Assembly (NCBI GenBank): GCA_030583825.1
Contig: CP129477.1
Span: forward strand, 74,259 to 138,258
Length of the DNA stretch: 64,000 bases
Direction: 5' to 3'
From: Candidatus Dojkabacteria bacterium
Lineage (GTDB): Bacteria; Patescibacteriota; Dojkabacteria; GCA-002793355
Shown here: positions 13,928-33,181 of the stretch, piece by piece
How positions within the stretch are numbered: the stretch's first letter is position 1
Layout: each line of letters begins with the position of its first letter
Translations under genes and position numbers: made by a program
Notes under the pieces: model-generated
Databases searched by the model: none
What the model was told of the DNA's origin: nothing
The model's input: the letters and a program-made list of their open reading frames with translations, nothing else

Positions 13928-14942
13928 TTAGATTCCAACCTCCCTGACTATTCTTTTCGTACATTCCAATATGTGTATGAACACCTGTAGAGAAACCTGT
14001 ATTACCCATAAAACAGATTGGATCTCCATACTTAACTGTTGAACCATCTTGAGCTATAAAGGCATCACAATGACAGTACAGGACTCTGTAATAATCGTTT
14101 GTGATATATGAACACAAAGCACCGTAACCATCTTTGAAATTTGAAACTTTTCCAGTAAGAATTGCTCTATTAATTGAATCAGTTGAACCTTTACCGGGAT
14201 TTTCCTGATACCATTTTGAAGAAGGAACAATATCAACTCCTTTATGCACGTTTTTAACTCCATCAATAACTCGAACTACATTAAATCCAGAAGTAACTGT
14301 AACTAAATCAGTTCTATTTAAGCCAATTGGATTTCCGTAAGGGATGTACATGAGTCCCACATACATTTGATACTGCTCATAGACTTCTTCTTTCTTCGGA
14401 TACGAATATTGGTTGATCTTCTTTTCAGCATCACCATCATATGCTGAAAGAATATTTGAAAGGGTAAAATAGTTATCACACAAGTCTTCGTGTGTAACTT
14501 CATTATTGTTATTTCCATCAGATCCGTAGTTATCCCAATCGGATTGAGGTATTTCTAAAAAGCCAACACCGTTTCCAGTATGCTTCTCATCAAAATCTGC
14601 AATAACTTTTCCGTATGAAGCAATAAGTTCAAACTCTTGTGAGTATTTACGACTTGCTTTATCAATACATTCTCTATGCTCTTGAGGTATCTCTTCTATT
14701 AAGCCTCTTGTACCAGCAAGTACCTGATAAGCAATTGCCTCAAGTGCAAAGATAACGAAAAAGAAGATGACTACATTGGCAAGCAGTATTTTCCACTTAT
14801 TTTTCCAGATAATATTTACAAGTATTGGACCAATTACTGGTGCGACTTTATTTGAAGCTAGTCCAATAACATCACCGACAAGACTATCTCCTATTTCTAC
14901 TGCGTTTTTTGTTGCTTGAAGTGGTTTATTTTCTTCCATCAT
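13875..14942 (-). CDS. M23-family metallopeptidase, a peptidoglycan hydrolase that would serve as the VirB1-type functional analogue of the T4SS.
   Basis: N-terminal TM helices. HKGVD (HxxxD) and GNTGFSTGVHTHIGMY (HxH) are the LytM/M23 zinc motifs. Confidence 0.7.
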   Translation of the reverse strand: MMEENKPLQATKNAVEIGDSLVGDVIGLASNKVAPVIGPILVNIIWKNKWKILLANVVIFFFVIFALEAIAYQVLAGTRGLIEEIPQEHRECIDKASRKYSQEFELIASYGKVIADFDEKHTGNGVGFLEIPQSDWDNYGSDGNNNNEVTHEDLCDNYFTLSNILSAYDGDAEKKINQYSYPKKEEVYEQYQMYVGLMYIPYGNPIGLNRTDLVTVTSGFNVVRVIDGVKNVHKGVDIVPSSKWYQENPGKGSTDSINRAILTGKVSNFKDGYGALCSYITNDYYRVLYCHCDAFIAQDGSTVKYGDPICFMGNTGFSTGVHTHIGMYEKNSQGGWNLIDPTPFLFPTNYYDGNE

Positions 14943-15808
14943 TTCACAATAATTGAAAAATTAGATGTAACAGTTAAGCCATCTTTTGAAATACGGACAA
15001 CTCCGCTTATTGATCCTGAGTTTCCATCTGGTACTGTAAAGTTAACTTTGGTTGCCCCACTTGATGAGGATGGGAAGTTGTAAGAAGCTTGTCCGCTTTG
15101 CCAATTCATGGTTGCATTTCCTGTAGCTCCATTTACTGGATTGTTGTTTTGTTCTTTAACTGAGCAATCCAAACTTACACTTTGCCCAACAAGTGGTTGA
15201 GTATTAGTTATCGAACAACTAAGTTTTAATCCAGTTATTGGATTAGGCTCTGGTTGTATAGGTTCTGTTGGTGTAACAGGCTTTGGAGTTTCTGGCTTTG
15301 GTTCAACTTTGGGTATTTCTGTTTTTGGTTGCTCTTGTTTGTCATCTTGTTTAGTCTCTTCTTTTTTCTCTTCCTCTCGAATTATTGAAAATGCAAGTGA
15401 CTTACTAGCATCATTTGAATTTTGCACCTCAATTAAAACCTCATTTGTACCAATAATAAGATCTATTTGTAATTCAAAAATACCTTCTTCATTTACAGTA
15501 ATTTCTTGTCCGTTGATCCATGCTTTATTCTGGTTTTCTGTTTTTGCAACAACTGTGATCGAGGATTCTTTGGTTTTGTAACCATCTTTTAATGAAACAA
15601 GTTCAATTGTAGGTTCTACTTCATCAGAATCATTCGTACCCTCTGATATTTGTGTTTCTACTGCATTAATTACTGAATTGAATCCGCCTTTAAGGTAAAT
15701 TTCTGCAGACAGAGAAATAGCAAACAATACAAGCAGAATGCTTGTTAGAAAAATGTATCCATGTTTTAGGTTTATTTCTTTATTGTCCATTTTTTCTTTG
15801 TTCATCAA
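14939..15808 (-). CDS. Membrane-anchored surface protein with a Pro/Thr-rich linker and a beta-rich C-terminal domain, T4SS-associated.
   Basis: N-terminal TM. The linker is KTEIPKVEPKPETPKPVTPTEPIQPEPNPITG. It sits in the T4SS operon between the M23 peptidase and VirB4. Confidence 0.4.
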   Translation of the reverse strand: MMNKEKMDNKEINLKHGYIFLTSILLVLFAISLSAEIYLKGGFNSVINAVETQISEGTNDSDEVEPTIELVSLKDGYKTKESSITVVAKTENQNKAWINGQEITVNEEGIFELQIDLIIGTNEVLIEVQNSNDASKSLAFSIIREEEKKEETKQDDKQEQPKTEIPKVEPKPETPKPVTPTEPIQPEPNPITGLKLSCSITNTQPLVGQSVSLDCSVKEQNNNPVNGATGNATMNWQSGQASYNFPSSSSGATKVNFTVPDGNSGSISGVVRISKDGLTVTSNFSIIVK

Positions 15809-17624
15809 TTTTTGCTAAATCTTCTGCATTTGAAGAAAATAATTTCCTCTCATGTGGAGTCGCATACACAAACATATGAGAATGAGTATTTCCTTTGATA
15901 AATAAAGCCTGTCCTTTGGTTAGTCTTGTAATGTAGTCTCGCTCTACATCTGACAGATCAAAGGCTTTTACTAAGCTTGGTATTGATTGTTTCTTCTGAG
16001 CAAGTATTAATGCTGTATCTGCATTTTTTGCAATAACACTTCCTTGAGGACTTTTTAGAAAATCATCTACATCCTGAGAAATTGAAATGACTCCAAGATT
16101 ATATTTTCTACCTCGTCTGACAAGATTTTCCATAAAGTTTGCACTTGATTCATCCTTCAAAAGTAGATGAGCTTCATCAATAATTAAAACTTTACGATTT
16201 CTATTTGATAAAACTTTTTGCCAAATAAAGTTTGATAGGTAAAAAATCGAAGCTTGTTTCTCCTGATCTGGAACTTTCTGAATATTGAAAACTACCATTG
16301 GAGAGTTAAAATCAACATCATCTGTAGAAGGGTTATCGTAAAGATCGCCCATTTCCCCTTTATGAGAGTATTCCAATAGTTCAACTGCAATGCGTTTACC
16401 TTCTTCACCTTGCTTTTCAAATATTTTTATAAGATCTGAAATAGTAGGAGGTTTCTTTGAATAAGTACTTGGATCATCTAGTAAGATTCCTTTACTGGCA
16501 TATGTTTCATTTACTGCTTTGCTAACAATGCCCCTGTTGTAAGCATCCTCAGATAACCAAATTTTGAGAAGACCTTTAACAACTCCAAGATGAGTTCTCA
16601 TTACTTCTTTGGTATCAGTATCACTTGAAAAGAATTGAAGGGGATTTACCTTAGTTTTGCTTTCTGGATTGATATCAATGTTTGTACCACCGACATAATC
16701 ACAAAGAGTTTTGAATTCTCCTTCTGGGTCAATGACATAAACATTAATACCTCGAAATAAGCTCCTGTATGCCTCTAATTTGGCTGAAAAGCTTTTTCCT
16801 GCTCCCGATGTAGCAAAGATGATTCCATTGTAATTTTTTGACGCTTTTGAAAATCTATCAAAACGGATTTTCTCACCACCTAATGTGATTCCATAAAATA
16901 TTCCGTCTGGATCATTTAATGTTGCTGTAGTAAATGGCAAAGAGGAAGATACATTTGAACTTGTTAAGTAAAACTCTTCTCCAACTGCATTAGTTACATT
17001 TGGTAGGAATGTTTCAAGTCCTTGTTTCTGCTTATAAACTAGTTGGTGTAATTTGATCTGTTTTGCGTAAGATAAATCTTTGAGAGCTTTATCGCTTTTA
17101 ATAAGTTTTGAGGTGTTTTCCTGACTCAATTTCAAATACATCGACATTGAGTATAGTTTTTCAACACCCCTAACAATCGAATCCTCAATACTTCTAGCAT
17201 CCGCAATAGCCTGTTCGAGATCAATTGTGTGCATCTTCCCTTTGTCTGCCTTCTCGTAGAATTGAGCGGAAAGATTAGTTATTCTATTTCGAAGACCCGA
17301 TAAGGCTTTTTGAGAATCAAGAGGCTTTATAAACTGGCTAATAACAATAGGTTCTCCGTAATTAACAAGATCGTACAACCAGTTGGGATATATGACTTGT
17401 GGAAATTCAGAAATCATATAAGACTGAATATTTCTGTCGTCTATCTCAATTAATTTTCCTTTGTTTTGAAATTCAAACACAAGAGAGTCATCTGGGGAAA
17501 GTTTCGCTATTTCAGCTTTACGAATACTGTCTTTAATGTATTCTCTGCCTTTTGAATCAATTCTTTGATTAAAGTCATTAAGTGCATATTTAGATTGTTT
17601 AAAAAAATATTTAATAGGATTCAT
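15780..17624 (-). CDS. VirB4/TrbE/TraE-family conjugation ATPase.
   Basis: Walker A is FATSGAGKS. IDPEGEF, Walker B LIIDEAHLLL and the RKYNLGVISISQ motif are all VirB4 hallmarks. Confidence 0.8.
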   Translation of the reverse strand: MNPIKYFFKQSKYALNDFNQRIDSKGREYIKDSIRKAEIAKLSPDDSLVFEFQNKGKLIEIDDRNIQSYMISEFPQVIYPNWLYDLVNYGEPIVISQFIKPLDSQKALSGLRNRITNLSAQFYEKADKGKMHTIDLEQAIADARSIEDSIVRGVEKLYSMSMYLKLSQENTSKLIKSDKALKDLSYAKQIKLHQLVYKQKQGLETFLPNVTNAVGEEFYLTSSNVSSSLPFTTATLNDPDGIFYGITLGGEKIRFDRFSKASKNYNGIIFATSGAGKSFSAKLEAYRSLFRGINVYVIDPEGEFKTLCDYVGGTNIDINPESKTKVNPLQFFSSDTDTKEVMRTHLGVVKGLLKIWLSEDAYNRGIVSKAVNETYASKGILLDDPSTYSKKPPTISDLIKIFEKQGEEGKRIAVELLEYSHKGEMGDLYDNPSTDDVDFNSPMVVFNIQKVPDQEKQASIFYLSNFIWQKVLSNRNRKVLIIDEAHLLLKDESSANFMENLVRRGRKYNLGVISISQDVDDFLKSPQGSVIAKNADTALILAQKKQSIPSLVKAFDLSDVERDYITRLTKGQALFIKGNTHSHMFVYATPHERKLFSSNAEDLAKIDEQRKNGQ

Positions 17625-18379
17625 ATTTCACTTATTGTTAATTTTGATAAATCTAAAATCTCTTGTGTATTTAATGGAATCAGCCTGATTTTAGTTTGTT
17701 CTAGCAGTCTTCCGAATGAGTTCTCCTGATCATCAAGCTTCTGTTTCGCATCGTCTAAACCCTTTGCAAAAGTAGTTAAGACAATATAAAAGCTTCTCTC
17801 CATTGTTAGCGTTAAGTCTTGGTATTCAAGTAGATACTCTCTGCATCGTTCTTGTAACAATCCGTTTAAATTGCGATACCGTAGTACTTCTGTATCAAGG
17901 CTTTTATCTTTCGTTGAAAACTTCTGAATGGTTAAAATTTGAACAGGATTTTTTAGAGCAAAAAGAGCCTGTTGTAGATATTTCTTAAAAGCAAAGATTT
18001 CTTCCTCACTACTCATTGAAAGGTTGATCGGTTCAATTCTAAATACCCTTGAGTACTGAACATCTGAACCTATTACTATTCCTTCTGAAATGTCTTTGCC
18101 AATAACAATCCTTTGTCTTTTAGTAGTAAAAAGAAAATTAAAGGCGTCTATAATGAAAATGTGGAGAGGTCTCCCATATGCATCAAAGAGAAAAGGAATT
18201 AGCAGAAGCCCAATGAACATCTCACCAAGTATTTTTTGATCTACAGTATTAAGAATATTTGTCGTCCAGACAAAAAAGGACAACCCAAGTCCGATTAGTA
18301 AAAGTAAATTTCTTCTGTTTAATACAATTGAGAAGAAACCTGTTTCTCTATTTAGTTTTGGCGGTACTATTTCCTGCAT
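17621..18379 (-). CDS. T4SS-associated membrane protein, possibly a VirB3/VirB8-position protein.
   Basis: Two or three hydrophobic helices near the N-terminus. It lies between the VirB6-like and VirB4 genes and is translationally coupled to them. Confidence 0.35.
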   Translation of the reverse strand: MQEIVPPKLNRETGFFSIVLNRRNLLLLIGLGLSFFVWTTNILNTVDQKILGEMFIGLLLIPFLFDAYGRPLHIFIIDAFNFLFTTKRQRIVIGKDISEGIVIGSDVQYSRVFRIEPINLSMSSEEEIFAFKKYLQQALFALKNPVQILTIQKFSTKDKSLDTEVLRYRNLNGLLQERCREYLLEYQDLTLTMERSFYIVLTTFAKGLDDAKQKLDDQENSFGRLLEQTKIRLIPLNTQEILDLSKLTISEI

Positions 18380-20453
18380 CTTTGTTTATTGGTTTAATCT
18401 GAAAATATTTTGTAACAGGCTTCTGACCAGATACTTTGTCCTGAACCTTCACTGTATTAATTCCTTGTGTCTGAAAATACCCCTTATCTGAGGCTGTATT
18501 TATAATATTCATCCTGTTTTGAGGATTTTGGACATACTGTTGAATCTGATTTTGATTCATTTTTCCATCAAGAACTTGATTCTTTGAGTACCACTCAGAT
18601 AGGTGACTCCAATGTTTATCGTTGCCTGAATCGAAAGTTCTTCCTTGCACAATTTCTGTAGGTTTGTTCGTAATCACATCAGATAAATACTGATTGGTAT
18701 TGGGATTTGAAAAACTTACCTGAGATAAATCCATCATTTGATGAATTGTGGCTGGTTTTTCAGTTAAAGGCTCACCAAGTGAAGAAGTGAAGTTGCTTTG
18801 TGAATATCCGTTACTAACAATATTTGAGTCTTTAACAGAAAGATCCTTGATTTTTTCAATATTAGGAGAAGTTGAGTATAAAGTTTTCGGTGTCTGAATA
18901 TCCTTTAAAGTTCTTCCACTCAAAGGCTTCATGCCAAGTTGTGAGAATGCTTTTGTAGCAGACCCACCTGAACTGACAACTGCGTTAAAAGAACCTGCTT
19001 TTGCAGTAGTCCCTCCTGACTTTAGTGCAACACCAGAATCAAGGGCTTTCTTTGCAGTACCACCAATTGGCAATTTAGAAACGATAGCTTCACCGAGTGC
19101 TTTACCTGCTAGATTTCTTATCGAGGTTGATTTTCCACCACTTGCTCCTGCTACAACACTTTCTTTCATCCTTCTTGCTTGACCTACAGTTGCACCTGCG
19201 ACAATTCCACCTGCAACAGAACCTCCAATTCCCCAAAGGATTCCAGAGAATCGATTTATTATTGAAGGAATAATATTTAGAAAGGCTAGCGAACCTAAAC
19301 CAAGTATAACTTTAGGTACAGGCTCATTTACACTTTGAATAATTTCAAGTGTTATTCCAATACCAATAAGAAATATCGGTTGCATAAATAAAGTTCTGAG
19401 AGTTTCTTCAATGTACTGTTTGAAAAACTGTCCACCACTCGGAAGTAACCCGATTACAAGCACAATAGGGAATATGATTACATGTAAAAGTAAGTGGAAA
19501 AAGCGAATGATAAATTGAAAAAGTATTGTTACTAGTAAAAAGAATAGTCCAATCCAAAGTATTATTTCAGCAAAGATATTTAGTGTTCCTTGTATTGATA
19601 ACTCAAGCTTAGAATCAACAATCTGCATACCAAGAGCAGTTAGAAGTGACTCTGACAATGTATCTCCACTGCCAACAAGGGCATTTAGTACAAGCCTATT
19701 TAAAGCGTTTACAAGATCAATAGCGTTTGCAAACAAAAATCTCATAGCAACCATACCAACAACAAAGAGAAGTACCTTTTTAGCAACTTCTTTAAGTAAT
19801 TGAATCCCTTTGAATGAACCTTCAAGAACTACATATGTTCCTGTAAGTACAATAATTAGTGGAAGAAGTAACCAAGCTACACTTTGAGTAGCATTGTAGA
19901 ATTTATTTACATGGATAGGGATATTGTTCCCTCTAGCATCAACAATCTGTCCATCACTTTTTGCAATATTTGGAGTAAATGCTACATAATCATCAAATAA
20001 TTCCAATCCTTGCATAATTATTTCTGAAATTGCATCAACAATTGATTCCTGAAAGCTAGAAAACGGATTGAGCATATCAATAGGATTTGGGATTGATTGA
20101 CCTCTGCCAAGCTCTTCTTCTGGTAAATCAAGTACACCAGAATCATCTGGAACTTGATATTCCATTTTTTGTTCAATTACTGTTGGCTCTTGTAATACTG
20201 GGTCTTGTACCTTTGGTTGATATACAAGAAAGAAGACTATTTGGAGAACTCCAATAACAATTGTTAAGATAATTCCCCAAATAAAAAGCTTGTTTATAAG
20301 ACTCTTTTCTTCATTTCCAGCCTTTTGGATTTTATCTTTCATCTCGAAAGCTTGTTTTTCAATTGTTTTGTATGAATTTAAGAAGTTAAACATTGGCAAT
20401 ATATTTGATAGCTTCCAAAATAAAATCTGGCTTAAACAGAAAGATTGCTGCAA
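18348..20453 (-). CDS. VirB6/TrbL-like polytopic membrane protein with a Gly/Ser-rich C-terminal extension.
   Basis: Multiple predicted TM helices in the central region and a G/S/A-rich low-complexity tail. An alternative start at 20342 (MKDKIQ...) would remove the overlap with the upstream pilin-like ORF. Confidence 0.5.
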   Translation of the reverse strand: MQQSFCLSQILFWKLSNILPMFNFLNSYKTIEKQAFEMKDKIQKAGNEEKSLINKLFIWGIILTIVIGVLQIVFFLVYQPKVQDPVLQEPTVIEQKMEYQVPDDSGVLDLPEEELGRGQSIPNPIDMLNPFSSFQESIVDAISEIIMQGLELFDDYVAFTPNIAKSDGQIVDARGNNIPIHVNKFYNATQSVAWLLLPLIIVLTGTYVVLEGSFKGIQLLKEVAKKVLLFVVGMVAMRFLFANAIDLVNALNRLVLNALVGSGDTLSESLLTALGMQIVDSKLELSIQGTLNIFAEIILWIGLFFLLVTILFQFIIRFFHLLLHVIIFPIVLVIGLLPSGGQFFKQYIEETLRTLFMQPIFLIGIGITLEIIQSVNEPVPKVILGLGSLAFLNIIPSIINRFSGILWGIGGSVAGGIVAGATVGQARRMKESVVAGASGGKSTSIRNLAGKALGEAIVSKLPIGGTAKKALDSGVALKSGGTTAKAGSFNAVVSSGGSATKAFSQLGMKPLSGRTLKDIQTPKTLYSTSPNIEKIKDLSVKDSNIVSNGYSQSNFTSSLGEPLTEKPATIHQMMDLSQVSFSNPNTNQYLSDVITNKPTEIVQGRTFDSGNDKHWSHLSEWYSKNQVLDGKMNQNQIQQYVQNPQNRMNIINTASDKGYFQTQGINTVKVQDKVSGQKPVTKYFQIKPINKDAGNSTAKTK

Positions 20454-20724
20454 TTATCAAGAAGAAAATATCTCTGGCTATTTTTCCTCTCATCATTGGA
20501 TTATCACCGCCATTCAGTAGTTCAAAAGCATCTTTTATGATAAATAGAATTAGAACTCCTGAACCAACCCTTGTTGCAATTGTGATGACTCTCTCAATAA
20601 TTGCTGAAATCTCTGCACTTGGATCACTTTGTGCATAAACTGTTTGAGCAAAGATAATCGGCGACATTGCAACTGTGGCAATTGATAAGGTAACTTTTTT
20701 GAGTTTTTCTATTTTGTTAGACAT
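20386..20724 (-). CDS. VirB2/TrbC-like pilin candidate (112 aa).
   Basis: A signal-peptide-like N-terminus (VTLSIATVAMSPIIFAQTVYAQS) is followed by two hydrophobic helices. It sits directly upstream of the VirB6-like gene. Confidence 0.4.
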   Translation of the reverse strand: MSNKIEKLKKVTLSIATVAMSPIIFAQTVYAQSDPSAEISAIIERVITIATRVGSGVLILFIIKDAFELLNGGDNPMMRGKIARDIFFLIIAAIFLFKPDFILEAIKYIANV

Positions 20725-20739
20725 AATAAATTTGTTAAT

Positions 20740-20880
20740 AAATTATTTAGTTTCTTCCTCAAGTAAAGCCTCATCGACTTTCTTGAGCTTTTTATCTCTT
20801 TTTTCCCTGTGTACACCTCGGAAAAAGATAATCGAGACGTACACAACAAATAGGCTTACAAATACAATTAGCGTTATCAT
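20740..20880 (-). CDS. Small single-TM protein (~46 aa), below the size cutoff of the supplied ORF track.
   Basis: Found by manual translation of the minus strand: MITLIVFVSLFVVYVSIIFFRGVHREKRDKKLKKVDEALLEEETK. Its start overlaps the adhesin stop (ATGA-type coupling). Confidence 0.25.
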
Positions 20881-23800
20881 TTTTGTTTCTTTTTGCGATT
20901 AATAAGTAAGATTGAGATACCAGTTCCGATTGAGATAAGCCCTATACCAATTACAAGAGGAGGTATAATTGATTGACCTGTTTGGGCAAGGATTACATCC
21001 CGATAAATACCTGCATTTAAGAAGTTGATACATCCAGAAGCTGTTAAGTATCTGACACCATCTATCTCATAATCTTCAATCTCACCGCTTTCGCTAGGAG
21101 CGAGTAGAACAAGCTTAAACTCATCGGGAGTAGTAATATTGTCAAAACCCTCTGGTTTGAAGACTTTGATCGTTAGCAATGTGTGATATGGAAGTCCTGT
21201 GTATTCATAATGACCATTGAATTCTGTATAGATATCTACGGAGTTTTCAACAAGATACTCTGATTCAGCCCATTTAATATTGATCTTTACATCTGGAATT
21301 CCTTGTTCTGATTCATCATACTTTCCGTTATTATTTGAGTCTTCCCAAATAAAGCCACCCATACAACACGAACTCGCAACTGCTGTAACAACTTCACTTT
21401 CAATTTCTTCAATAACAGGGGTAAATATTACAGCTGAGTTTCTAATTTCAGTTCCGCTTTCTGTGGGGATATTAATAACTACTCTAAATGAGACTGAGCC
21501 TTCTTCTTCTGAGCTAAGCTGACCGATATTCCAAGAAACTTGATTAGTTTCATTATCAAAAGTTCCTTCAATACCACTTTCAGTTGCAAGGAACTCAACA
21601 AAGCTCGTATGCTCTGGTATTGAATCGGTAATTACAGTTTCAGGAGAATAACCTGTACCAGTATTTCGATAAAGTATTGTGTAAACAATACTTTGACCAG
21701 GTGCAACTACTTCTGGCAGTTCCTGTAATTTCTCAAGTTCAAGAATAGGGGCGTGAACCACTACTTCAACCTCATCAGATACAATAGGTCTCTCGTTTTC
21801 ATTCAGATCTACATAATCATAGCCAACTTCATTATTGAAAGTATCAAGATCTGTTATAGGGACTAAGAATTTTGCTGTTATCATAATATCAATACTTTCA
21901 CCCGCATCAAGAGATACATTAAATGAGATATTTTGCCCATCAACTACTATTTGATCTTTTGGGAAATCACTTGCTACAAATTCAAGTCCTTCTGGAAGTG
22001 TATCGGATACAATTCCATTTGCTCTTGAACTGCCTATATTCTCAACGTGAATTGAGTAGGTTACTTCTTCATCACTTTGATACTCAAGCTTGTCTGAATC
22101 CTTAGTAATTTCAGCATTGGGCTGATTAACTCTGATAATTGCGTTATCTGTATCTATTTCAACAAGTTCGTTTTCAGAAGCAATTGCGGAGACGTTATCA
22201 ATCAACCTTTGAGCATCATCTGGAGATAGGGTGATATCTGAGCTCGGATTTATTTGAACTCTAAACTCTTTTACCTTCCATTCTTGCCCAACCTGTAGCT
22301 CTCCGATATTCCATCTAATATCAAACCCTATTGCAGTTTCGATTACCTCAATTTCGTCTGAGATATCAAAGATGTCCTCTAAAAGGATGATTTGATACTG
22401 ATTGCCATTTTCATCAGTAATGAATTTTGGGAGATGGTCTTCAATGTAAGTATCGGGACTGTGAGCATTACCTGTATTTCTGTAGACTAGAGTATATTTA
22501 AGTGTGTCTCCTGCAATAACAAAAACATCACTATCAGTTCCGAAGACTTCATCTGCATCTGCTCCGTATTCATCATGATCAACTTCGTTTCCACTATTAG
22601 ATCTACCATTTTCTAAAGCAGTCTCGTTGATTACATATTTCTCTATATCGGTTTCAGGGTAAGCATTTACAGGCAAGTTATGTTCTGTCTGATCAGGAGG
22701 ATAAAAGGAAGTCTCAGTTATAGCTACGTTTTCAAGATTAGTAGTCCCAACTGGAAAAACAGGATCAAGAGTTGCATCAAAACTGAGGGTCTTACTTTCT
22801 CCCCATATACTTCTTGGATCTGGATCATATGAGCCATTAAGAATGTATTGAGGCTCTGTAGTACTCCATACAACACGCCTTAACTGTTCATCCCATGCTC
22901 CATCATCTGAAATATTACTAATACTCATTCTTTCAGGTACAAGATCGTAAACCTCTGTGTTGTAGGCATTACCTGTCCCAACATTTCTTACATTAATTAC
23001 CCAATGAATTGTTTGAGAAGGTTCTGCACTTTCAAGTCCATCATCCTTTGTTATTTCAAGAATAGGGGCATGGATAGTTGTAATTGTGGAATCACTAATA
23101 GGTGGTACTTCTTGCGTTCTTACCTCAGCGATATTATTAATTTGAGTATTATCATCAATACCTGCATTAAATTGCACATCGAATGTAACTGTATGATTTT
23201 CTCCCTGAGGCAAATCGCCGATATCCCAAACAATTTCTCCAACCAACTGTCCATTTACAATCCTTGTTGTTAAAACACCGTTATCACTAATGTTTCTGAT
23301 TGATCCATTTCTAATGACTTCGGAGACATTATCATGAATGGTTACAAGATGAGCATCAGCGTCACCGCTATTTTCTATATTAATCGAATAGGTCGATAAC
23401 CTTTCGGCATTGTCTGGATGCCCACCTTGTAAGTGGTTAGAATTAGTATTTGTTTCATCACTATCGGAAACTGTTTTATCAATTTCCATTCTAACCTCAG
23501 CAGTAATATTGGTCTGTGTGGAATCGTCAATAGGATTAGTCTGGTCTGAATCAACTGTTACAGTATTTGGTGCTTGATATGTACCATGAGCTAGTGGGGC
23601 TGTTACTCTAGCTCTAATGGTAAATGTTTCAGTCTGTTGATTTTGTAAATTACCAATATTCCAAGTTATTGTATTGCCATTATCAGAGCCTCCATCAGCA
23701 TCGAGGATCTCAAGCATATCTTCTTCATAATCATCCACAACTACAACACCTGTTGCATTTCCACCAGTATTTCTTACTGTTATGTCATAAGTAATCTCTT

Positions 23801-25028
23801 CATTTGGTCTAGAGTCATTTGATTCAACTCTGGTTTCATCATTATCAGATACAACTTTATTGACAGAGATATTTGGGGGTACGTTTAAAGTAGTGTTGTC
23901 TGAGTAAACTGTATAAGGTAGTAATTCGATAAAGTAGTAATCGCCTTGAGGATATGAAACAAAATCTGGTTGTCTTCCAGTCCACCCAGAAGGAGCACCA
24001 GAATCAGTTCTATTAACTATTATTGTTCTAGTTTCGGGATTATGATCATAAATACTTGAGCCTGCTATTGCACCTTCCTCTTTATGTCTATTTGGATCGG
24101 AAATTCTTGCAGGTAAGCTTGTTATATTTGTAGGATAACTAGCCCCCATATTGGCGTAATAAGTAAAAGTCCTTGTTTGACCTGAACTGAAAGTTACTGT
24201 TTGATCAAAAGTTTCGCCACTTGGAAGATCATCAACAACCCTGATATTTGCGAGATTATAGGAAGAAACATTTCTAACAGTTAAATCATATCTGATTCTT
24301 AGATTTCCACCTCCAATAAACTCTGGTGTGGCAATTCTTGATTGAATCTGAATTGGCTGTATAGTTGTGAATGAGTAAATTGTTCTTCCACTTGGAGGAT
24401 TACTTAAAGGATTTGCAGGATATGTACCTAAATTGCCAAGACTTACATATCTTCCATTCCTTGTCTGCCAGTTACCCATATATAGATAATTGACTCCCCC
24501 TACAGAACCACCAGAACCAAGTCGTCCCCAATCACCATTTGAAGTATTACTTCTTGATACAAAAAGGTAAGCATGATCTGCTGTAATTGAATGACCTGAA
24601 TAATTATGAATATAATAACCGACATCAATTCGTGTATTAGGCGGTACTGCAACTCTATCAGCAACCCCTCGATATCTATGAGCATCTGGATATGTCACAT
24701 CAGCTACATCATGAAAATTGTGATTTTCTGGATATGCACCACTTTCACCATAAACTTGAGAAGCATTATACGAAACACAATTTGCCCCTGAGCAGTTATT
24801 TGGCAAGCTTCTGTACGAAACAGAAGTTGCTTGTGCAAAGTTACAATTATCAGCATCAGCTGACGGATAGAATGAATCAGCATAAACTGGTTGTAAGAGC
24901 AAAAGATTATATATACCAGAGATTGAGAGTATAAAATTCAGAATTATGAATTTCTTCAATATTCCTACTTTCTTAACTCTCTTTACAATCTTCTTGAGCA
25001 GTTGAAACTTAAAATATTTACTTCTCAT
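20877..25028 (-). CDS. Giant cell-wall-anchored surface adhesin (1383 aa) with DUF11 repeats, an SdrD-B-like domain and an LAQTG sorting signal.
   Basis: N-terminal signal/TM. At least five DUF11-type repeats (e.g. TLKYTLVYRNTGNAHSPDTYIEDHLP and VTYSIHVENIGSSRANGIVSDTLPEGLEFV). A C-terminal CCMGGFIWEDSNNNGKYD region is SdrD-B-like. The protein ends with LAQTG, then a hydrophobic stretch, then RKKKQK. Confidence 0.7.
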   Translation of the reverse strand: MRSKYFKFQLLKKIVKRVKKVGILKKFIILNFILSISGIYNLLLLQPVYADSFYPSADADNCNFAQATSVSYRSLPNNCSGANCVSYNASQVYGESGAYPENHNFHDVADVTYPDAHRYRGVADRVAVPPNTRIDVGYYIHNYSGHSITADHAYLFVSRSNTSNGDWGRLGSGGSVGGVNYLYMGNWQTRNGRYVSLGNLGTYPANPLSNPPSGRTIYSFTTIQPIQIQSRIATPEFIGGGNLRIRYDLTVRNVSSYNLANIRVVDDLPSGETFDQTVTFSSGQTRTFTYYANMGASYPTNITSLPARISDPNRHKEEGAIAGSSIYDHNPETRTIIVNRTDSGAPSGWTGRQPDFVSYPQGDYYFIELLPYTVYSDNTTLNVPPNISVNKVVSDNDETRVESNDSRPNEEITYDITVRNTGGNATGVVVVDDYEEDMLEILDADGGSDNGNTITWNIGNLQNQQTETFTIRARVTAPLAHGTYQAPNTVTVDSDQTNPIDDSTQTNITAEVRMEIDKTVSDSDETNTNSNHLQGGHPDNAERLSTYSINIENSGDADAHLVTIHDNVSEVIRNGSIRNISDNGVLTTRIVNGQLVGEIVWDIGDLPQGENHTVTFDVQFNAGIDDNTQINNIAEVRTQEVPPISDSTITTIHAPILEITKDDGLESAEPSQTIHWVINVRNVGTGNAYNTEVYDLVPERMSISNISDDGAWDEQLRRVVWSTTEPQYILNGSYDPDPRSIWGESKTLSFDATLDPVFPVGTTNLENVAITETSFYPPDQTEHNLPVNAYPETDIEKYVINETALENGRSNSGNEVDHDEYGADADEVFGTDSDVFVIAGDTLKYTLVYRNTGNAHSPDTYIEDHLPKFITDENGNQYQIILLEDIFDISDEIEVIETAIGFDIRWNIGELQVGQEWKVKEFRVQINPSSDITLSPDDAQRLIDNVSAIASENELVEIDTDNAIIRVNQPNAEITKDSDKLEYQSDEEVTYSIHVENIGSSRANGIVSDTLPEGLEFVASDFPKDQIVVDGQNISFNVSLDAGESIDIMITAKFLVPITDLDTFNNEVGYDYVDLNENERPIVSDEVEVVVHAPILELEKLQELPEVVAPGQSIVYTILYRNTGTGYSPETVITDSIPEHTSFVEFLATESGIEGTFDNETNQVSWNIGQLSSEEEGSVSFRVVINIPTESGTEIRNSAVIFTPVIEEIESEVVTAVASSCCMGGFIWEDSNNNGKYDESEQGIPDVKINIKWAESEYLVENSVDIYTEFNGHYEYTGLPYHTLLTIKVFKPEGFDNITTPDEFKLVLLAPSESGEIEDYEIDGVRYLTASGCINFLNAGIYRDVILAQTGQSIIPPLVIGIGLISIGTGISILLINRKKKQK

Positions 25029-25117
25029 AGATGTAAATCAAAATATTAAATAAAGCTTTCACTTGAGACAGGGCTACTCAACTGCTCAAGGTAAAAGTAG
25101 CCCTGTCTCAAAGACCC

Positions 25118-25441
25118 TCAGAAAACCCTAAAGATATTTCGATCTATTCTTTGAGAACCAATAATCCTTTTTTTCGTTAGTCTTTTTATTGAATTAATTA
25201 TCTTAACTTCATCAAACCCAAATCCTTCCGAAACAACTATTCTTTTTCCATCAGATGTAAATTTATCTATACCCCAAATTAAGTCATCAATTAAAAGATC
25301 AAAATATTGGTTTACTTTTTCGTATTTGAGGAGAATCAAAATCACTGATGCAACACGAAAATCAATATCCTTCAAATAAGGACTATCTAGTAAAACTAGT
25401 TTTTCAAATCTTTTATCTAATGACATCTTTTTCATTACCAA
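25118..25441 (-). CDS. Hypothetical protein (107 aa).
   Basis: ORF in the operon divergent from the XRE regulator. Confidence 0.35.
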   Translation of the reverse strand: MVMKKMSLDKRFEKLVLLDSPYLKDIDFRVASVILILLKYEKVNQYFDLLIDDLIWGIDKFTSDGKRIVVSEGFGFDEVKIINSIKRLTKKRIIGSQRIDRNIFRVF

Positions 25442-25895
25442 TAAAAACTACTGAATTATGTATATGAACAATTATTTTTGAACTGTTTTTATATTTAGAG
25501 ATATGAACCTCTGGGATTTCAATACCTTTTTTCCTACAAGCTTTTGCTAGATTTAAAGCTCTGGCTTCGATTTTTACAGATCTTGGATTTAAGTTTGAGA
25601 CTGCTTCTATATAGTCATTAATGTCTGTAATTTTAAAAAATCCTGCAGGCAGACTAGACTTAGAACCAATAGGCTCAAATCTCTCATTTATCAAGTACTG
25701 AACAACTTTTCTAATCTCTCGATCAGTTAGCGGAACAATCTGCATCAATTCTGATACCTGAATCGGGTTTTCTAAACCTTCATGCAAGAAGATCTCATCT
25801 AATATTCTTTGTATGTATTTTTCCGCAATAGTTTTCATATTTCTTTTTGTATTTTTAAAACACAAAAGGCTACGCTTTACATTGAGATGAATCAT
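25413..25895 (-). CDS. Hypothetical protein (160 aa).
   Basis: ORF that overlaps its neighbours. Confidence 0.35.
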   Translation of the reverse strand: MIHLNVKRSLLCFKNTKRNMKTIAEKYIQRILDEIFLHEGLENPIQVSELMQIVPLTDREIRKVVQYLINERFEPIGSKSSLPAGFFKITDINDYIEAVSNLNPRSVKIEARALNLAKACRKKGIEIPEVHISKYKNSSKIIVHIHNSVVFIGNEKDVIR

Positions 25896-26154
25896 CTGAG
25901 GGGGCGATTTCCTCAGAAAGCGTAGCCTTGTCTGTCTTAAATTTTCTTTCTTCTAATTGCTGTATTGCTAATCTACCTGCCGTAGTTAAATGAGCCTCAA
26001 TAAGAGGCTTTGAAATCATTGCAACAGCAAGAAGTTGTTCGTCAGAGTAGTCTTTAAACCGTTGATACCCACCTTGTGAAATTCTCATCTTGATGAAGCT
26101 AAATACTTCATCTAAGGTGACCTGTGTAAATTTGAATTGACTGCTCAAGTTCAT
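25870..26154 (-). CDS. Hypothetical small protein (94 aa), first gene of the divergent operon and a candidate excisionase/RDF by position.
   Basis: It occupies the Xis-equivalent position in an ICEBs1-like int-immA-immR | xis layout. No recognisable motif. Confidence 0.3.
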   Translation of the reverse strand: MNLSSQFKFTQVTLDEVFSFIKMRISQGGYQRFKDYSDEQLLAVAMISKPLIEAHLTTAGRLAIQQLEERKFKTDKATLSEEIAPSDDSSQCKA

Positions 26155-26303
26155 ATGTTTTTCCTTTATGTATAATCACCTTGAGCAGTTTGATACATTA
26201 CAGTTATCAATAATATACATATGAGTTATCAGAATGTCAAGTCCCATGTATCAGAAAATTATCTAACTGTTGTTTCATCCCTTCGTAGCATATACTTTCA
26301 CTG

Positions 26304-26333
26304 TTGACATTAATGTGCATCTAGTGATACAAT
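26304..26333 (+). promoter_or_regulatory. Sigma70-like promoter for the XRE regulator gene, in the divergent control region.
   Basis: TTGACA (26304-26309), an 18-nt spacer, then an extended -10 TGaTACAAT (26325-26333). Confidence 0.4.
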
Positions 26334-26372: not shown

Positions 26373-26831
26373 ATGAATAAAGAAATAGTTGGAAAACAAT
26401 TAAAAAAGGCTCGTACAGAAAAGAATTTATCTCAAGAGGAACTAGCTCAAAAGGTCGGGATTTCCAGAATGATGATTAGTAGATACGAAATATCATCAAG
26501 TGATATCCCGCTTGAAAAACTTCAAAGAATCGCTGAAATATTAGATAAACCTATCTCCTTTTTCTTTGGTGAGGAACCTAAACAGGATTCACAGCAAGTA
26601 TGGAAAGAAGCACAAAAATATCTTGAGCTATTAAAAGATAAAGTTGGTGGAGACATTTTATTATCCCCTAAAGAAATGCTTGCTTTTTCACTTGGTCCAA
26701 ATGCAAATACTGATCAGGCAATCAGTGAAGCAAAGACCATGATGAAAAACTGGTATATCGCAAATAAATTAGAAGAATCAACTAATAAAACATTCGAAGA
26801 ATGGTGGGAAAATATGAAGAAAGAAAACTAA
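26373..26831 (+). CDS. XRE-family HTH transcriptional regulator, ImmR/cI-like candidate repressor of the element.
   Basis: N-terminal HTH_3 (LSQEELAQKVGISRMMISRYE). It is divergent from the transfer operon and followed by an HExxH peptidase gene. Confidence 0.65.
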   Translation: MNKEIVGKQLKKARTEKNLSQEELAQKVGISRMMISRYEISSSDIPLEKLQRIAEILDKPISFFFGEEPKQDSQQVWKEAQKYLELLKDKVGGDILLSPKEMLAFSLGPNANTDQAISEAKTMMKNWYIANKLEESTNKTFEEWWENMKKEN

Positions 26832-26987: not shown

Positions 26988-27338
26988 ATGATTTTACCTC
27001 TTGTCCAAGACATGCTAAACATGTCGGCTCAAAGCCTAAGGACAAGATTCCCTCAAGATTACAGATATATAAAGGCTATAGCTCAAGAAAAATGGCCACA
27101 TATAAAAATTGAGGAAAAATCATTTAAGGAAAATATTAAAGGGATTAGAAATCTTATTGGTGATTCAAGTGTATATTGGCTTATCGTAATCAATACTGAA
27201 TTACCAGAGGAAGAAAAGTACTTAACTTTAATTCATGAACTATTGCATTGCACTATAGATGAAATTAAATTACTTGGAAAAGAAGATGAAGAAAGACTTG
27301 TAACATCAATCGAAAAGGAAATATCAGATTCCTTTTGA
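26988..27338 (+). CDS. ImmA/IrrE-like HExxH metallopeptidase candidate (anti-repressor protease).
   Basis: LIHELLHCTIDE carries HExxH. It follows the XRE gene as in ImmR-ImmA modules. At 116 aa it is small for the family. Confidence 0.4.
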   Translation: MILPLVQDMLNMSAQSLRTRFPQDYRYIKAIAQEKWPHIKIEEKSFKENIKGIRNLIGDSSVYWLIVINTELPEEEKYLTLIHELLHCTIDEIKLLGKEDEERLVTSIEKEISDSF

Positions 27339-27370: not shown

Positions 27371-27480
27371 ACCACAACTTATTTCGATGTAGACCTTAGT
27401 CATCTTAGGAAAAGATGATAATAAGGGCGATTCGTACAATTCTACATCGTAGAGTTGTGGTCAACGAGTCGCCCTTTTTT
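27371..27480 (+). promoter_or_regulatory. Imperfect ~23-bp inverted repeat plus a terminator-like hairpin with a T6 run, lying between the ImmA-like gene and the integrase.
   Basis: ACCACAACTTATTTCGATGTAGA (27371-27393) pairs with TCTACATCGTAGAGTTGTGGT (27441-27463). GGGCGATTCG (27425-27434) pairs with CGAGTCGCCC (27465-27474), followed by TTTTTT. Confidence 0.4.
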
Positions 27481-27505
27481 GTTAAATAAATATTTAATAA
27501 TAACT

Positions 27506-29116
27506 ATGAAAACAGCAGTAATTTATGCAAGAGTATCATCAAGAGAACAAGCAGAAGGCTTTTCGATTGATGCACAAGTAAAAGCTTGCAAGGTTAAAGC
27601 ATCACAGGAGAGCTTTAAGGTCTTGGAGGTTTTTAAAGATGAAGGCTTTACTGGTACAAGTCGTGATAGACCTGCATTGAATGCCTTAATCGGTTATTGC
27701 AAAGATAATAGTGTACATTCTGTAATCATTCATAAGCTCGATCGATTTGCACGCTCAATAGTTGATCACTCGGCAATTAGAGCAATGTTGATGAAATATG
27801 GAACAAACCTTATCTCCTGTACAGAGCAACTCGGTACAGCTCCACACGAAATCTTTCTCGAAAACATAATGGCTTCAATGGCTCAATACTATAGTGATAA
27901 CCTAAAAACAGAAGTTAGAAAGGGAATAGTAGAGAGATTTGAGAGCGGTTATCATATGGCAACACCTCCATATGGCTATGAAGTCCGAACAGGCTCAAAA
28001 ATTATGCAAATAATTCCAAATGAAGCTGAAATCGTAAGAAAAATGTTTTCATTATATGTAACTGGCGAATATTCATTTCAAACAATTGCTGACAAAATAT
28101 ATGATGAGAATAAGTATAAGACACGTCAAGGTAAGAAATTTTCAAAAGGTCGAATTCAAGATATACTAAATAATGTAGCTTATATGGGGCAGATTGAGTA
28201 TAAGAAACTGGGTAAAAAGGTACAGGGGTTACATGAAGCGATAGTATCACCTACAATATTTCTATTAGCACAAGAAGTTATGGAATCAAGAGGTAACATC
28301 AGAAAAGTTGAAAAAGGAAAACTTGAGTTTCTTTATAAAGGTTTTGTTGCTTGCCCAGAATGTAGCAAACCGCTTTATGCTGCTTACTCAACAGGAGGGA
28401 GCGGAAAAAAGCATCTATACTATTGTTGTAGAAATAAAAAGCATGGCGCAGTCAATATTAAGGCTGATGATGTTCATAAAGCATTCTATAAAGCTTTAGA
28501 ATCGTTGCAGATTAGTGAAGATGTTATGGAAATTGTGAGAGAGTTTGTTGGTAGGCGACTTGAAGAACAAGAAGCTCAAGCAGGTAAAAAAGTTGATGAA
28601 TGTGAAAGAAAAGTAAAAGCGATTGAAAAGGAGAAACTTGATTCTTACAAAGACCATAAGAAAGGATTGCTTGACGAAAACGCATTGAGAGCCGTCTTGT
28701 CTGACTTAGAAGATAAAAAGACACTTGCTCAGATGGAATTAAATGAGGAGAAGATAGACTACAATGATTTGCTTACACAAATTAGAATGCTAGCTCAATT
28801 TGGTGCAAGAATAGACCGATACTGGGAAATCGCAACCTTTGATCAAAGAAGGGATATTTTGGGAAGTATGTTTACGAACGTACCCACATATAAAAATTAC
28901 GAACTTACGAACATGGAAATAAGCCCTCTGTATGAGGCTTTACGTGATATTTCAAAAAATCACGTCTTGAATGGTCGGAGTGGCGAGACTCGAACTCGCG
29001 ACCTCACGCACCCCATGCGTGTACTCTACCAACTAAGCTACACCCCGATATGGGTACAATTATACCCCCGTGGGTATATGTTTGGAAAGCTTTCATTAGT
29101 TAGTACAATCCTCTAA
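27506..29116 (+). CDS. Large serine recombinase (integrase) of the element.
   Basis: MKTAVIYARVSSREQ...DAQ is the resolvase catalytic N-terminus with the Ser nucleophile. There is a recombinase domain, a zinc ribbon (CPECSKPL...YYCCRN) and a coiled coil. The ORF track starts at 27455, but the conserved N-terminus begins at the Met at 27506. The last ~48 codons run antisense through tRNA-Pro. Confidence 0.85.
   Translation: MKTAVIYARVSSREQAEGFSIDAQVKACKVKASQESFKVLEVFKDEGFTGTSRDRPALNALIGYCKDNSVHSVIIHKLDRFARSIVDHSAIRAMLMKYGTNLISCTEQLGTAPHEIFLENIMASMAQYYSDNLKTEVRKGIVERFESGYHMATPPYGYEVRTGSKIMQIIPNEAEIVRKMFSLYVTGEYSFQTIADKIYDENKYKTRQGKKFSKGRIQDILNNVAYMGQIEYKKLGKKVQGLHEAIVSPTIFLLAQEVMESRGNIRKVEKGKLEFLYKGFVACPECSKPLYAAYSTGGSGKKHLYYCCRNKKHGAVNIKADDVHKAFYKALESLQISEDVMEIVREFVGRRLEEQEAQAGKKVDECERKVKAIEKEKLDSYKDHKKGLLDENALRAVLSDLEDKKTLAQMELNEEKIDYNDLLTQIRMLAQFGARIDRYWEIATFDQRRDILGSMFTNVPTYKNYELTNMEISPLYEALRDISKNHVLNGRSGETRTRDLTHPMRVLYQLSYTPIWVQLYPRGYMFGKLSLVSTIL
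28972..29047 (-). tRNA. tRNA-Pro (anticodon GGG) with an encoded CCA.
   Basis: Manual fold: acceptor CGGGGTG/CACTCCG, anticodon stem CACGC/GCGTG, loop aTGGGgt, T-arm GGTCGCGAGTTCGAGTCTCGC, 3' ACCA. Confidence 0.7.
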
Positions 29117-29993: not shown

Positions 29994-30066
29994 TCCTCGG
30001 TAGCTCAGCAGGTAGAGCAAGCGGCTGTTAACCGCTGGGTCCTAGGTTCGAGTCCTAGCCGGGGAG
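29994..30066 (+). tRNA. tRNA-Asn (anticodon GTT).
   Basis: TCCTCGGTAGCTCAGCAGGTAGAGC..., anticodon loop CTGTTAA, T-arm GGTTCGAGTCC, acceptor 3' CCGGGGAG. Confidence 0.75.
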
Positions 30067-30132
30067 CTGATTGCTAAGCTCGTCTGTTTAGGCGGGATTA
30101 GTAATCAGAGTTTTTTATTAATCTCCCTGGTT

Positions 30133-31047
30133 TTACGTTACTTTTTTCAAGACAAACTTGGCAAGTTGAATTGATTCTCCTTCTTTGTAAGGTAAGTATT
30201 GATCATTATAAATTCCAATTAAGTCGATGCCTTTTAATGAATAGACGATATCCCGCACTTCGTTTAGTAACCACATTTTTTCTTTCATCTGCTCACGTTC
30301 CCACTGCGCCCACTTCCCATTCTCCTCTTTTGTTCTTATAAAAATATCAAATACTATTTCTCGCGTCTTAAAATTAGGAAGATTAATCCATATTCGCTGA
30401 AAGTTCTCTGTACTAAATGTTGTTACTTTTTGCTTGAAGAAATCAATTTCCCATCCATTATCTATCCGAATATCAAAAATAAGCACTCCATTTTCTTTCA
30501 GATTTTTCAAAAGACTTTTCAGCAACTCTTTTAGCTGAGTTTCATTCAAGGCGAAGTTCGAGCTAAAATCATACCAAATAATTGCGTCAGCTTTGGGTGA
30601 TAGTTCCAAGTTCTGAATAGAAGAAACAAAATAGTCTGTTGCTTGCGGGCCTAGCTTTTTCGCCTCTGCAATCATTTCAATAGATTGATCAAACCCTATT
30701 ACACTACTGTATCCTGCCATTGATAGTAATCGAACAAAACCTCCCGTGCCACATGCTGCATCCACAATCAAAGAACCTTTATTTACTGAATATTCTTTAA
30801 AGATTCTGTCCGTGAAATCTGCCTGTGACTGAAAAATATTTTCAGGAGTATCTTCATGAAAAATTTTGGCAAAAATTGACCACGGAGGATTGACTGGCAA
30901 TCTACCCAATTTTTTAGTTATTTGTTTGTACACTTCTTCTGGGTTTAGAGCTGCATCTTGAGCCCACTTTGAAAACTCATCTGTACCTTGCTGTGCCTTC
31001 TTGGATAATTCTTGAAGATGAGCTGAATGTGTTGAATCAACAGACAT
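30133..31047 (-). CDS. Class I SAM-dependent methyltransferase.
   Basis: Motif I is IVDAACGTGGF. It is the last gene of a three-gene minus-strand cassette. Confidence 0.65.
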   Translation of the reverse strand: MSVDSTHSAHLQELSKKAQQGTDEFSKWAQDAALNPEEVYKQITKKLGRLPVNPPWSIFAKIFHEDTPENIFQSQADFTDRIFKEYSVNKGSLIVDAACGTGGFVRLLSMAGYSSVIGFDQSIEMIAEAKKLGPQATDYFVSSIQNLELSPKADAIIWYDFSSNFALNETQLKELLKSLLKNLKENGVLIFDIRIDNGWEIDFFKQKVTTFSTENFQRIWINLPNFKTREIVFDIFIRTKEENGKWAQWEREQMKEKMWLLNEVRDIVYSLKGIDLIGIYNDQYLPYKEGESIQLAKFVLKKVT

Positions 31048-31092
31048 TATTTAGATTTATCAATTTAAATGTATAGCTTATCTCCTTACTGC

Positions 31093-31890: not shown

Positions 31891-31893
31891 TCA

Positions 31894-32637: not shown

Positions 32638-32669
32638 GAGGTACTAAATTTAAATTAAGCTAAGTATTT

Positions 32670-33176
32670 ATGCAGCCAAAAAATGATATGTCTCCAAAGC
32701 TTCCATTACGCGTTGTGGGTTTACTCGTTAAAGATGGAAAAGTTCTTCTTGGCAAAAGAACAGAAGGTATCGGAGAAAATAATTATGTAGGGATCGGCGG
32801 CAAAGCTGAAAAAGATGAAACTCCTGCGGAAACATTAGTACGCGAAGTGAAAGAAGAAATCGGCGTGGCAATTACTTCCTTTACACAAATTGGTGACCTG
32901 AACTTTTTCTTTCCATTTCAAGAAGAAGGTAAACGCTGGGATCAAAATGTTATCGTTTTTATTTGCACAGAATGGACAGGCGAAATCCGGCAAATGGAGA
33001 CTATTATTCCGGAGTGGTTCGAGCTGAATTCTTTACCTCTTCAGTATATGTGGCACGATGCAGAAATATGGATGGGACAATGCTTAAATGGCTATTATAT
33101 TCGAGGAGATTTTATTTACAATAAAGATTTTAGACTTGAGTCCTGGGATGTTAGTGCAACACAACCTGCCGCTTAA
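32670..33176 (+). CDS. Nudix hydrolase.
   Basis: GIGGKAEKDETPAETLVREVKEEIGV is a canonical Nudix box. Confidence 0.7.
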   Translation: MQPKNDMSPKLPLRVVGLLVKDGKVLLGKRTEGIGENNYVGIGGKAEKDETPAETLVREVKEEIGVAITSFTQIGDLNFFFPFQEEGKRWDQNVIVFICTEWTGEIRQMETIIPEWFELNSLPLQYMWHDAEIWMGQCLNGYYIRGDFIYNKDFRLESWDVSATQPAA

Positions 33177-33181
33177 TATAC

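Follow-up and report, generated by a model that had tools for sequence, protein, structure and literature searches.

For mating-pair formation, Gram-positive conjugation systems use LPxTG adhesins such as PrgB as their standard device (PMC12857230). Efficient transfer of plasmid pCW3 has been cited as requiring its sortase SrtD (Revitt-Mills 2021, as cited in PMC8225981). In Patescibacteria, a survey of type IV secretion systems (T4SSs) recorded no PrgB-like conjugation adhesins and few relaxases, with MOBC as the most frequent class, and it suggested that these T4SSs have been co-opted for non-conjugative roles (PMC12102498). This report concerns a 64-kb stretch of DNA from Candidatus Dojkabacteria (Patescibacteria, or Candidate Phyla Radiation, CPR), referred to in its whole length as the window. 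Judged by its gene content, the window carries an integrative conjugative element (ICE) inserted at a tRNA-Pro gene. The element encodes a small sortase and a large surface protein ending in an LAQTG sorting signal. In our view these probably form a matched enzyme-substrate pair, a wall-anchored adhesin with its own sortase, that stabilises the contact between donor and recipient. No description of a sortase-adhesin module on a patescibacterial conjugative element was found in the literature searched. The strategy is already known from Gram-positive plasmids, and the present case is a new variant of it in a poorly studied phylum.

The adhesin and the sortase lie in one transfer array

Profile searches placed genes for a recombinase, a relaxase, a coupling ATPase and a VirB4-based T4SS together in one block, the combination by which an ICE is recognized, and the related elements keep these genes in the same order. 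The full kit consists of a serine recombinase, a MOBC-type Replic_Relax protein, VirB4, a VirB6-like protein, a pilin, an M23 hydrolase and a coupling-type ATPase. Replic_Relax (PF13814) has been equated with the MobC relaxase superfamily (PMC5357655). The adhesin and sortase genes both fall within a co-directional minus-strand transfer array of ~17 kb, running from ~26154 to 8863. Its gene order is directly visible: three small open reading frames (ORFs), the adhesin, a VirB2/TrbC-like pilin, a TrbL/VirB6-like protein, a 252-residue protein, VirB4, a Glucodextran_B-like protein, an M23 peptidase, an HTH_36 protein, an 864-residue P-loop ATPase, Replic_Relax and the sortase. The HTH_3 gene, a weakly matching Peptidase_M78 gene and the large serine recombinase gene are divergent from it. 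The first-pass annotation had assigned the sortase and the adhesin to a single conjugation array. Their common direction, and the conservation of the pair as a unit across the related elements described below, bear this out.

The adhesin had been described as a DUF11 protein of 1383 residues with a C-terminal sorting signal, and translation, Pfam and NCBIfam all confirmed this at 20877..25028. Its C-terminus consists of LAQTG, a hydrophobic segment of 26 residues and RKKKQK; the translation of 20877..20975 (minus strand) is QSIIPPLVIGIGLISIGTGISILLINRKKKQK followed by a stop codon. At the N-terminus, a basic n-region and a hydrophobic core precede a predicted VYA-DS cleavage site at residues 48-52, as read from the sequence. 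V48, A50, D51, F53 and Y54 are invariant in the N-terminal alignment, and a cleavage pattern of A followed by D[SYEF]F is common to nine adhesin orthologues. All parts of an LPxTG-type sorting signal are present, namely a signal peptide, a C-terminal pentapeptide, a hydrophobic segment and a positively charged tail. Tandem PF01345-type domains between the signal peptide and the sorting signal give the protein the form of a fibrillar adhesin with a CLIPPER/DUF11 stalk. Pfam matched DUF11/CLIPPER at 5.9e-52 in 5 stretches, together with DUF7619, DUF7927 and SdrD_B, and NCBIfam matched a DUF11 repeat and an isopeptide-forming fimbrial domain. In fibrillar adhesins, the CLIPPER/DUF11 families have been described as stalk modules held by isopeptide bonds (PMC12617251).

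The complete signal goes beyond what chance would give. Across all stop-to-stop ORFs of the window, antisense junk ORFs aside, the pentapeptide was followed by a hydrophobic stretch and a basic tail in the adhesin only. Nine ORFs of at least 150 residues other than the element adhesins (from 93 sources) carry a bare [LI][PA]xTG within 50 residues of the C-terminus, and none of the nine (0/9) has the membrane segment and basic tail.

The product of 8863..9393 on the minus strand had been reported as a small sortase with a catalytic His, Cys and Arg. The motif IAIHRF lies at 9091..9108 and YTCKFYSSNQRV at 8884..8919, both on the minus strand. The Pfam Sortase model (PF04203) gives a borderline score of 26.6 bits, exactly its gathering cut-off of 26.6, with an E-value of 5.6e-06, and a profile built from the element sortase family matches Bacillus anthracis SrtA at 8.9e-05. 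Alignment showed the triad to be complete rather than missing: H99 (in IAIHR), C161 (in YTC) and R169 are invariant in 20 homologues that are 52-90% identical. In an alignment of 125 diverse sortase-family proteins, the same columns hold His in 120, Cys in 120 and Arg in 122 (96-98%). The AlphaFold model (mean predicted local distance difference test score, pLDDT, of 85) has an N-terminal helix at residues 2-28 and a compact beta-barrel; its eight strands and N-terminal membrane anchor correspond to the sortase fold. The 50 best Foldseek matches of this model in the PDB are sortases without exception (50/50). Alignment and model together provide good evidence that the protein is a membrane-anchored sortase, with predicted transpeptidase activity.

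The element sortase is not supported as class E

The LAxTG form of the motif had been taken to indicate a class E sortase. This assignment did not hold. The class E profile of NCBIfam (NF033747) scores 14 bits against a cut-off of 160; class C, with the same cut-off, scores 19, and the class D (SrtD) model scores 15 against 140. The nearest sortase relatives outside the element family are also below every class cut-off. Sequence searches of the PDB returned weak class A and class C matches only, and fold scores fail to separate classes A, C, D and E. In class E, a conserved Tyr in the beta3/beta4 loop has been proposed to select the Ala at P3 of LAxTG, and the beta6/beta7 loop carries a long insertion of 21 residues relative to class A (PMC5148588). 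In the element sortase, the beta3/beta4 loop as placed from the predicted model (between strands 81-87 and 93-98) reads DSDNL, and its columns are variable and contain no aromatic residue in the family. The modelled beta6/beta7 loop (between strands 135-147 and 156-161) has 8 residues, so the class E insertion is absent. On profile scores and the predicted structure, we conclude that the enzyme is best treated as an unclassified minimal sortase.

In each element, the sole candidate substrate bears [LI]A[QDEK]TG, and the relation between enzyme and substrate rests on their co-occurrence. If the sortase does use this motif, its LAxTG specificity is probably convergent with that of class E.

The pair is conserved across a family of elements

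Conservation was examined in 80 genomic loci around relatives of VirB4 and in further loci from a metagenome scan and exact-protein look-ups. With a single VirB4 protein as query, the metagenome scan yielded no more than two close loci. Both ends were seen in eight distinct related elements (L004, L005, L006, L007, L089, L090, L091 and L092; L085 is the same element as L007 on another contig), and their VirB4 proteins are 69-93% identical. The window and 8/8 of these elements contain both the sortase and an adhesin ending in [LI]A[QDEK]TG with a membrane segment. Neither was found in any of 76 loci (0/76) around distant CPR VirB4 proteins that are 31-35% identical (1.22 Mb in total; 29 of these loci include both 10-kb flanks). 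The co-occurrence of the two genes is strict.

The adhesins are 33-85% identical to that of the window, compared with the 69-93% of VirB4, and evolve much faster. Within this divergence, the nine orthologous adhesins all keep A, T and G of the motif while the rest of the tail diverges. In the adhesin of L090 (3277..6264), the SdrD_B-like C-terminal domain has been replaced by an N/Q-rich low-complexity linker and the motif is kept as LAKTG. Wherever the surroundings of a sortase homologue were read (down to 53% identity), its gene directly follows and overlaps the Replic_Relax gene of such an element, and the family was found here on these elements only. Because of this shared context and the strict co-occurrence, the sortase is regarded as a core gene of the element family and the adhesin as its only visible candidate substrate. 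The sequence comparisons strongly support a dedicated sortase-adhesin pair over a chance association.

The pilin of the array was considered as a sortase substrate and rejected, because its FAQTV falls within the signal peptide and a C-terminal signal is missing. In a distant CPR T4SS locus (L060), a 201-residue ORF just after VirB4 (12404..13009) ends in LPFTG, a short hydrophobic stretch and KIEKKQ. This ending is probably due to chance, because the hydrophobic part is short and there is no sortase nearby.

A proposed mechanism and its alternatives

In the mechanism that we propose, the adhesin would be exported through Sec, after which the hydrophobic segment and basic tail at its C-terminus would keep it in the membrane. 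The element sortase, predicted to be a type II membrane protein whose catalytic domain of ~120 residues faces outward, would cleave [LI]AxT-G between T and G via Cys161. It would then pass the adhesin to the amine of a wall precursor, leaving the adhesin covalently attached to peptidoglycan. Both the cleavage at the motif and peptidoglycan as the acceptor are inferred; the M23 hydrolase of the element suggests that a wall has to be crossed. Isopeptide-type CLIPPER/DUF11 domains, forming the stalk, would project the N-terminal domain outward, where it could bind another cell and stabilise mating pairs for the T4SS of the element alongside the pilus. A role in mating-pair stabilisation is plausible by analogy with the conjugation adhesins of other systems. 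With its own sortase, the element could display the adhesin independently of the sortase of its current host.

Several points weigh against this mechanism. The search for sorting signals on this chromosome covered the 64-kb window, and a housekeeping sortase or other LAxTG/LPxTG substrates may be present elsewhere in the genome; sortases are common in CPR genomes (PMC6744442). The predicted specificity of the sortase is tentative, as no class profile fits the enzyme. The L090 adhesin has a longer and less basic tail after its membrane segment. The model of the N-terminal domain of the adhesin is poor (pLDDT 62, with only five homologues found), and Foldseek matched this domain to generic beta-sandwich proteins at an uninformative template modelling (TM) score of ~0.2. 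In the scan for promoters and terminators, site counts were at or below the shuffle expectation, and the ends of the operon rest on consensus matches. Finally, the chromosomal T4SS of Saccharibacteria serves epibiotic growth and not conjugation (PMC12857230).

Because of this last point, attachment to a host cell is a live alternative, if an unlikely one. The pair would be real, but the adhesin would serve to attach the ultra-small cell to its host organism in an epibiotic lifestyle, or would serve aggregation, as a fitness trait borne by the element rather than a part of mating-pair formation. Patescibacterial T4SSs and surface structures have been linked to epibiotic growth (PMC12857230, PMC12102498), and the divergence of the adhesin relative to VirB4 fits adaptation to variable partner surfaces. 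The position of the adhesin gene argues for the transfer apparatus instead. In every element it is fixed in the core array between the leader ORFs and the pilin gene, whereas the true cargo varies and lies beyond the sortase. These elements, in contrast to most chromosomal CPR T4SS loci, also have genes for a relaxase, a recombinase and a coupling ATPase.

It is improbable that the sortase is instead a polymerase of the pilus type, which would link adhesins to one another or join the adhesin to the VirB2-like pilus as a VirB5-like tip adhesin, away from peptidoglycan. Class C is nominally the best NCBIfam class, the lidded pilus sortases 2xwg and 6bwe are among the top fold matches, the adhesin matches the model of an isopeptide-forming fimbrial domain, and its gene is directly upstream of the pilin gene. 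The class C score is nevertheless far under the cut-off, and the hallmarks of that class are missing from the enzyme: it has no C-terminal membrane segment, ending after the last strand, and its sequence shows no DP[WFY] lid motif. Only one substrate gene is present per element, the pilin has no sorting motif, and a YPKN-type motif or an E-box was found in 0/9 element adhesins. Pilus polymerization was largely rejected on account of these pilin motifs, which the adhesins lack.

Very improbable is a mere membrane anchor with a chance LAQTG, the sortase acting on chromosomal substrates or being an inert passenger: the bare pentapeptide does arise by chance near the C-terminus of nine unrelated ORFs in the loci examined, and the scan took in the window and these loci rather than the genome as a whole, but none of the nine has the membrane segment and basic tail, the A, T and G have persisted across divergent adhesins and through the domain replacement in L090, the sortase and motif occur together in all related elements and in none of the distant loci, and the sortase family is confined to these elements.

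The sortase-adhesin pair in mating-pair stabilisation, the reading that we prefer, has wider implications. The element family is a counter-example to the survey of patescibacterial T4SSs (PMC12102498), as it combines a full mobility toolkit with a self-contained surface-display module. Tentatively, and with considerable doubt, the conjugative elements of this family might be the first in Patescibacteria that are clearly self-transmissible. A VirB2 pilus in the Gram-negative style would then be combined with a sortase-anchored adhesin in the Gram-positive style, the latter served by an unclassified, element-restricted class of minimal sortase whose LAxTG specificity is independent of actinobacterial class E. 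In the boldest form of this idea, the sortase may couple the adhesin covalently to the pilus itself, making it a tip adhesin. The elements provide a concrete starting point for studying horizontal gene transfer and contact between cells in a phylum with a poorly known envelope and genetics, and they would be candidate vectors for CPR genetics if they do transfer. A sortase with a catalytic domain of 120 residues and an apparent Ala-at-P3 motif is of possible interest for sortase-based protein ligation.

Mobility, cargo and genomic setting

The related elements occupy different tRNA genes. The insertion site is tRNA-Pro(ggg) in the window and Ser(gct), Gly(tcc), Glu(ttc) and Glu(ctc) in the relatives, and wherever a recombinase was called in these (L089, L090 and L091) its 3' end overlaps the tRNA gene on the opposite strand. 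Such integration sites are usually associated with tyrosine integrases. A serine recombinase family retargeted to several tRNAs is noteworthy. The cargo of the window, downstream of the sortase (499..6844, minus strand), comprises GmrSD_N with SLFN/AlbA_2, a ResIII helicase and an N6_N4 methylase. Cargo in the relatives (L001, L089, L091, L093 and L095) includes type I restriction-modification, an MmeI-like enzyme and a SMODS protein. These are mostly defence genes; in L089 their place is taken by a P-type ATPase with a cupredoxin. The stretch between the sortase and the cargo holds DUF2958 and several small ORFs that are conserved. The differing tRNA sites and cargo therefore support an active or recently active family of ICEs.

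The G+C fraction of the element is 0.32-0.37, against 0.36-0.42 in the chromosomal flank; the step was compared over window positions 1..26000 and 30000..64000. GC skew is negative almost everywhere in the window and tracks the dominant minus-strand coding. A comparison of the tRNA-Pro region with positions 1..8900 for attachment-site (att) repeats found none, and the left end of the element probably lies outside the window. VirB4 proteins 97-99% identical to that of the window have been filed under Candidatus Micrarchaeota archaeon and Candidatus Nomurabacteria (P0058, P0074). Either these are mislabelled bins or the element has recently crossed lineages.

Coordinates of the individual features are collected in Table 1. 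The hairpin beyond the sortase gene is a possible end of the transfer operon. At the other end of the array, a divergent promoter-like pair at 26212..26333 separates it from the HTH_3 gene, which is followed by the weak Peptidase_M78 gene and the recombinase gene. This arrangement resembles the ImmR/ImmA module that controls ICEBs1 and phages. The element also pairs a pilus gene, typical of diderms, with a wall-anchored adhesin, typical of monoderms, and the two genes are adjacent.

Table 1. Features of the element in the window, with tRNA and recombinase genes of related elements (positions in each relative are those of its own locus).
Feature	Position	Strand	Basis or remark
Fibrillar adhesin, 1383 residues	20877..25028	-	ORF and Pfam/NCBIfam domains
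Adhesin layout	signal peptide; N-terminal beta-rich region, residues ~51-380; CLIPPER/DUF11-type repeats, ~385-1210; SdrD_B, 1223-1299; sorting signal		
Adhesin signal peptide, residues 1-50, predicted cleavage VYA/DS	24879..25028	-	Sequence and orthologue alignment
LAQTG pentapeptide of sorting signal	20976..20990	-	Translation
Hydrophobic membrane segment and basic tail, QSIIPPLVIGIGLISIGTGISILLIN-RKKKQK	20880..20975	-	Translation
Predicted minimal sortase, 176 residues	8863..9393	-	N-terminal membrane helix 2-28; catalytic domain of ~120 residues
Sortase His99 codon	9097..9099	-	
Sortase Cys161 codon	8911..8913	-	
Sortase Arg169 codon	8887..8889	-	
Terminator-like hairpin with T-rich tail, 66 nucleotides past sortase stop codon	8780..8797	-	Consensus match only
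Replic_Relax (PF13814) protein, candidate MOBC-type relaxase	9363..10253	-	3' end overlaps sortase start by 31 nucleotides
P-loop ATPase, 864 residues, candidate coupling protein	10473..13067	-	Weak TrwB/DUF87/FtsK matches around Walker A
HTH_36 protein	13064..13927	-	
Peptidase_M23 protein, likely peptidoglycan hydrolase of transfer apparatus	13875..14942	-	
289-residue protein with Glucodextran_B-like domain	14939..15808	-	Kept in element family
VirB4-type ATPase	15780..17624	-	
Conserved 252-residue protein	17621..18379	-	Orthologues match TraC-like PF26593
TrbL/VirB6-like polytopic membrane protein	18348..20453	-	
VirB2/TrbC-like T4SS pilin, 112 residues, directly downstream of adhesin	20386..20724	-	Weak T4SS_pilin match; L089 orthologue matches TrbC
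Three small ORFs at array head	25118..26154	-	No family match
Best promoter-like site, array head	26212..26240	-	11/12 matches; consensus match only
Promoter-like site divergent from 26212..26240	26304..26333	+	Consensus match only
HTH_3 repressor-like protein	26373..26831	+	
Weak Peptidase_M78 (ImmA/IrrE-like) protein	26988..27338	+	
Large serine recombinase (Resolvase, Recombinase and Zn_ribbon_recom domains)	27455..29116	+	3' end overlaps tRNA-Pro
tRNA-Pro(GGG), likely integration site and right element end	28972..29047	-	
Variable cargo/accessory genes (GmrSD_N with SLFN/AlbA_2, ResIII helicase, N6_N4 methylase, DUF2958)	499..8440	-	
L089, tRNA / recombinase	433-525 / 493-1962		
L090, tRNA / recombinase	115-189 / 136-1773		
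L091, tRNA / recombinase	268-342 / 302-1924		
L006, tRNA	386-460		
L092, tRNA	389-463		

Comparison with known systems

Class E sortases with LAxTG substrates are represented by SrtE1 and SrtE2 of Streptomyces coelicolor and by SrtE of Corynebacterium. The element sortase lacks their long cytoplasmic N-terminal segment. Closer to the host, the chromosomal T4SSs of Patescibacteria share with the element a monoderm-type VirB4, VirB6 and cell-wall hydrolase together with VirB2-like pilins, which are unusual in monoderms (PMC12857230, PMC12102498). The element VirB4 is 31-35% identical to many CPR VirB4 proteins. The chromosomal systems differ in being mostly without a relaxase (PMC12102498), and the 76 that were examined have neither a sortase nor a sorting-signal adhesin. 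Unlike them, the element clade has a recombinase, a MOBC-type relaxase and integration at tRNA genes.

Among conjugation adhesins, TIE of the Bacillus subtilis plasmid pLS20 is likewise the product of a conjugation operon, and without it mating is inefficient, above all in liquid (PMC8092201). It differs in having no sorting signal and acting independently of sortase, and pLS20 has no sortase gene (PMC8092201). PrgB of the Enterococcus faecalis plasmid pCF10 is, like the element adhesin, a large protein with an LPxTG-type wall anchor whose gene belongs to a T4SS operon; its role is to promote the formation of mating pairs (PMC12857230). The two differ in motif (LPxTG in PrgB, LAxTG in the element) and in their functional module: PrgB has a polymer adhesin domain, and Pfam detected no such domain, of the glucan-binding or antigen I/II type, in the element adhesin. 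PrgB is dependent on the sortase of its host. The analogy with PrgB drawn in the first-pass annotation is therefore kept as a functional one only, because the polymer adhesin domain was not found.

A search of 72,556 plasmid records with the Dojkabacteria sortase (tblastn) gave no match. The nearest parallel in organization is pCW3 of Clostridium perfringens. It differs from the element in its Firmicute host, in being a plasmid rather than an ICE integrated at a tRNA gene, and in a Tcp system without a VirB2-like pilin. As cited in PMC8225981, pCW3 too is a conjugative element of a monoderm that brings a sortase of its own, encoded within or close to the transfer genes. SrtD of pCW3 is a closer precedent than PrgB for the sortase-adhesin pair described here.

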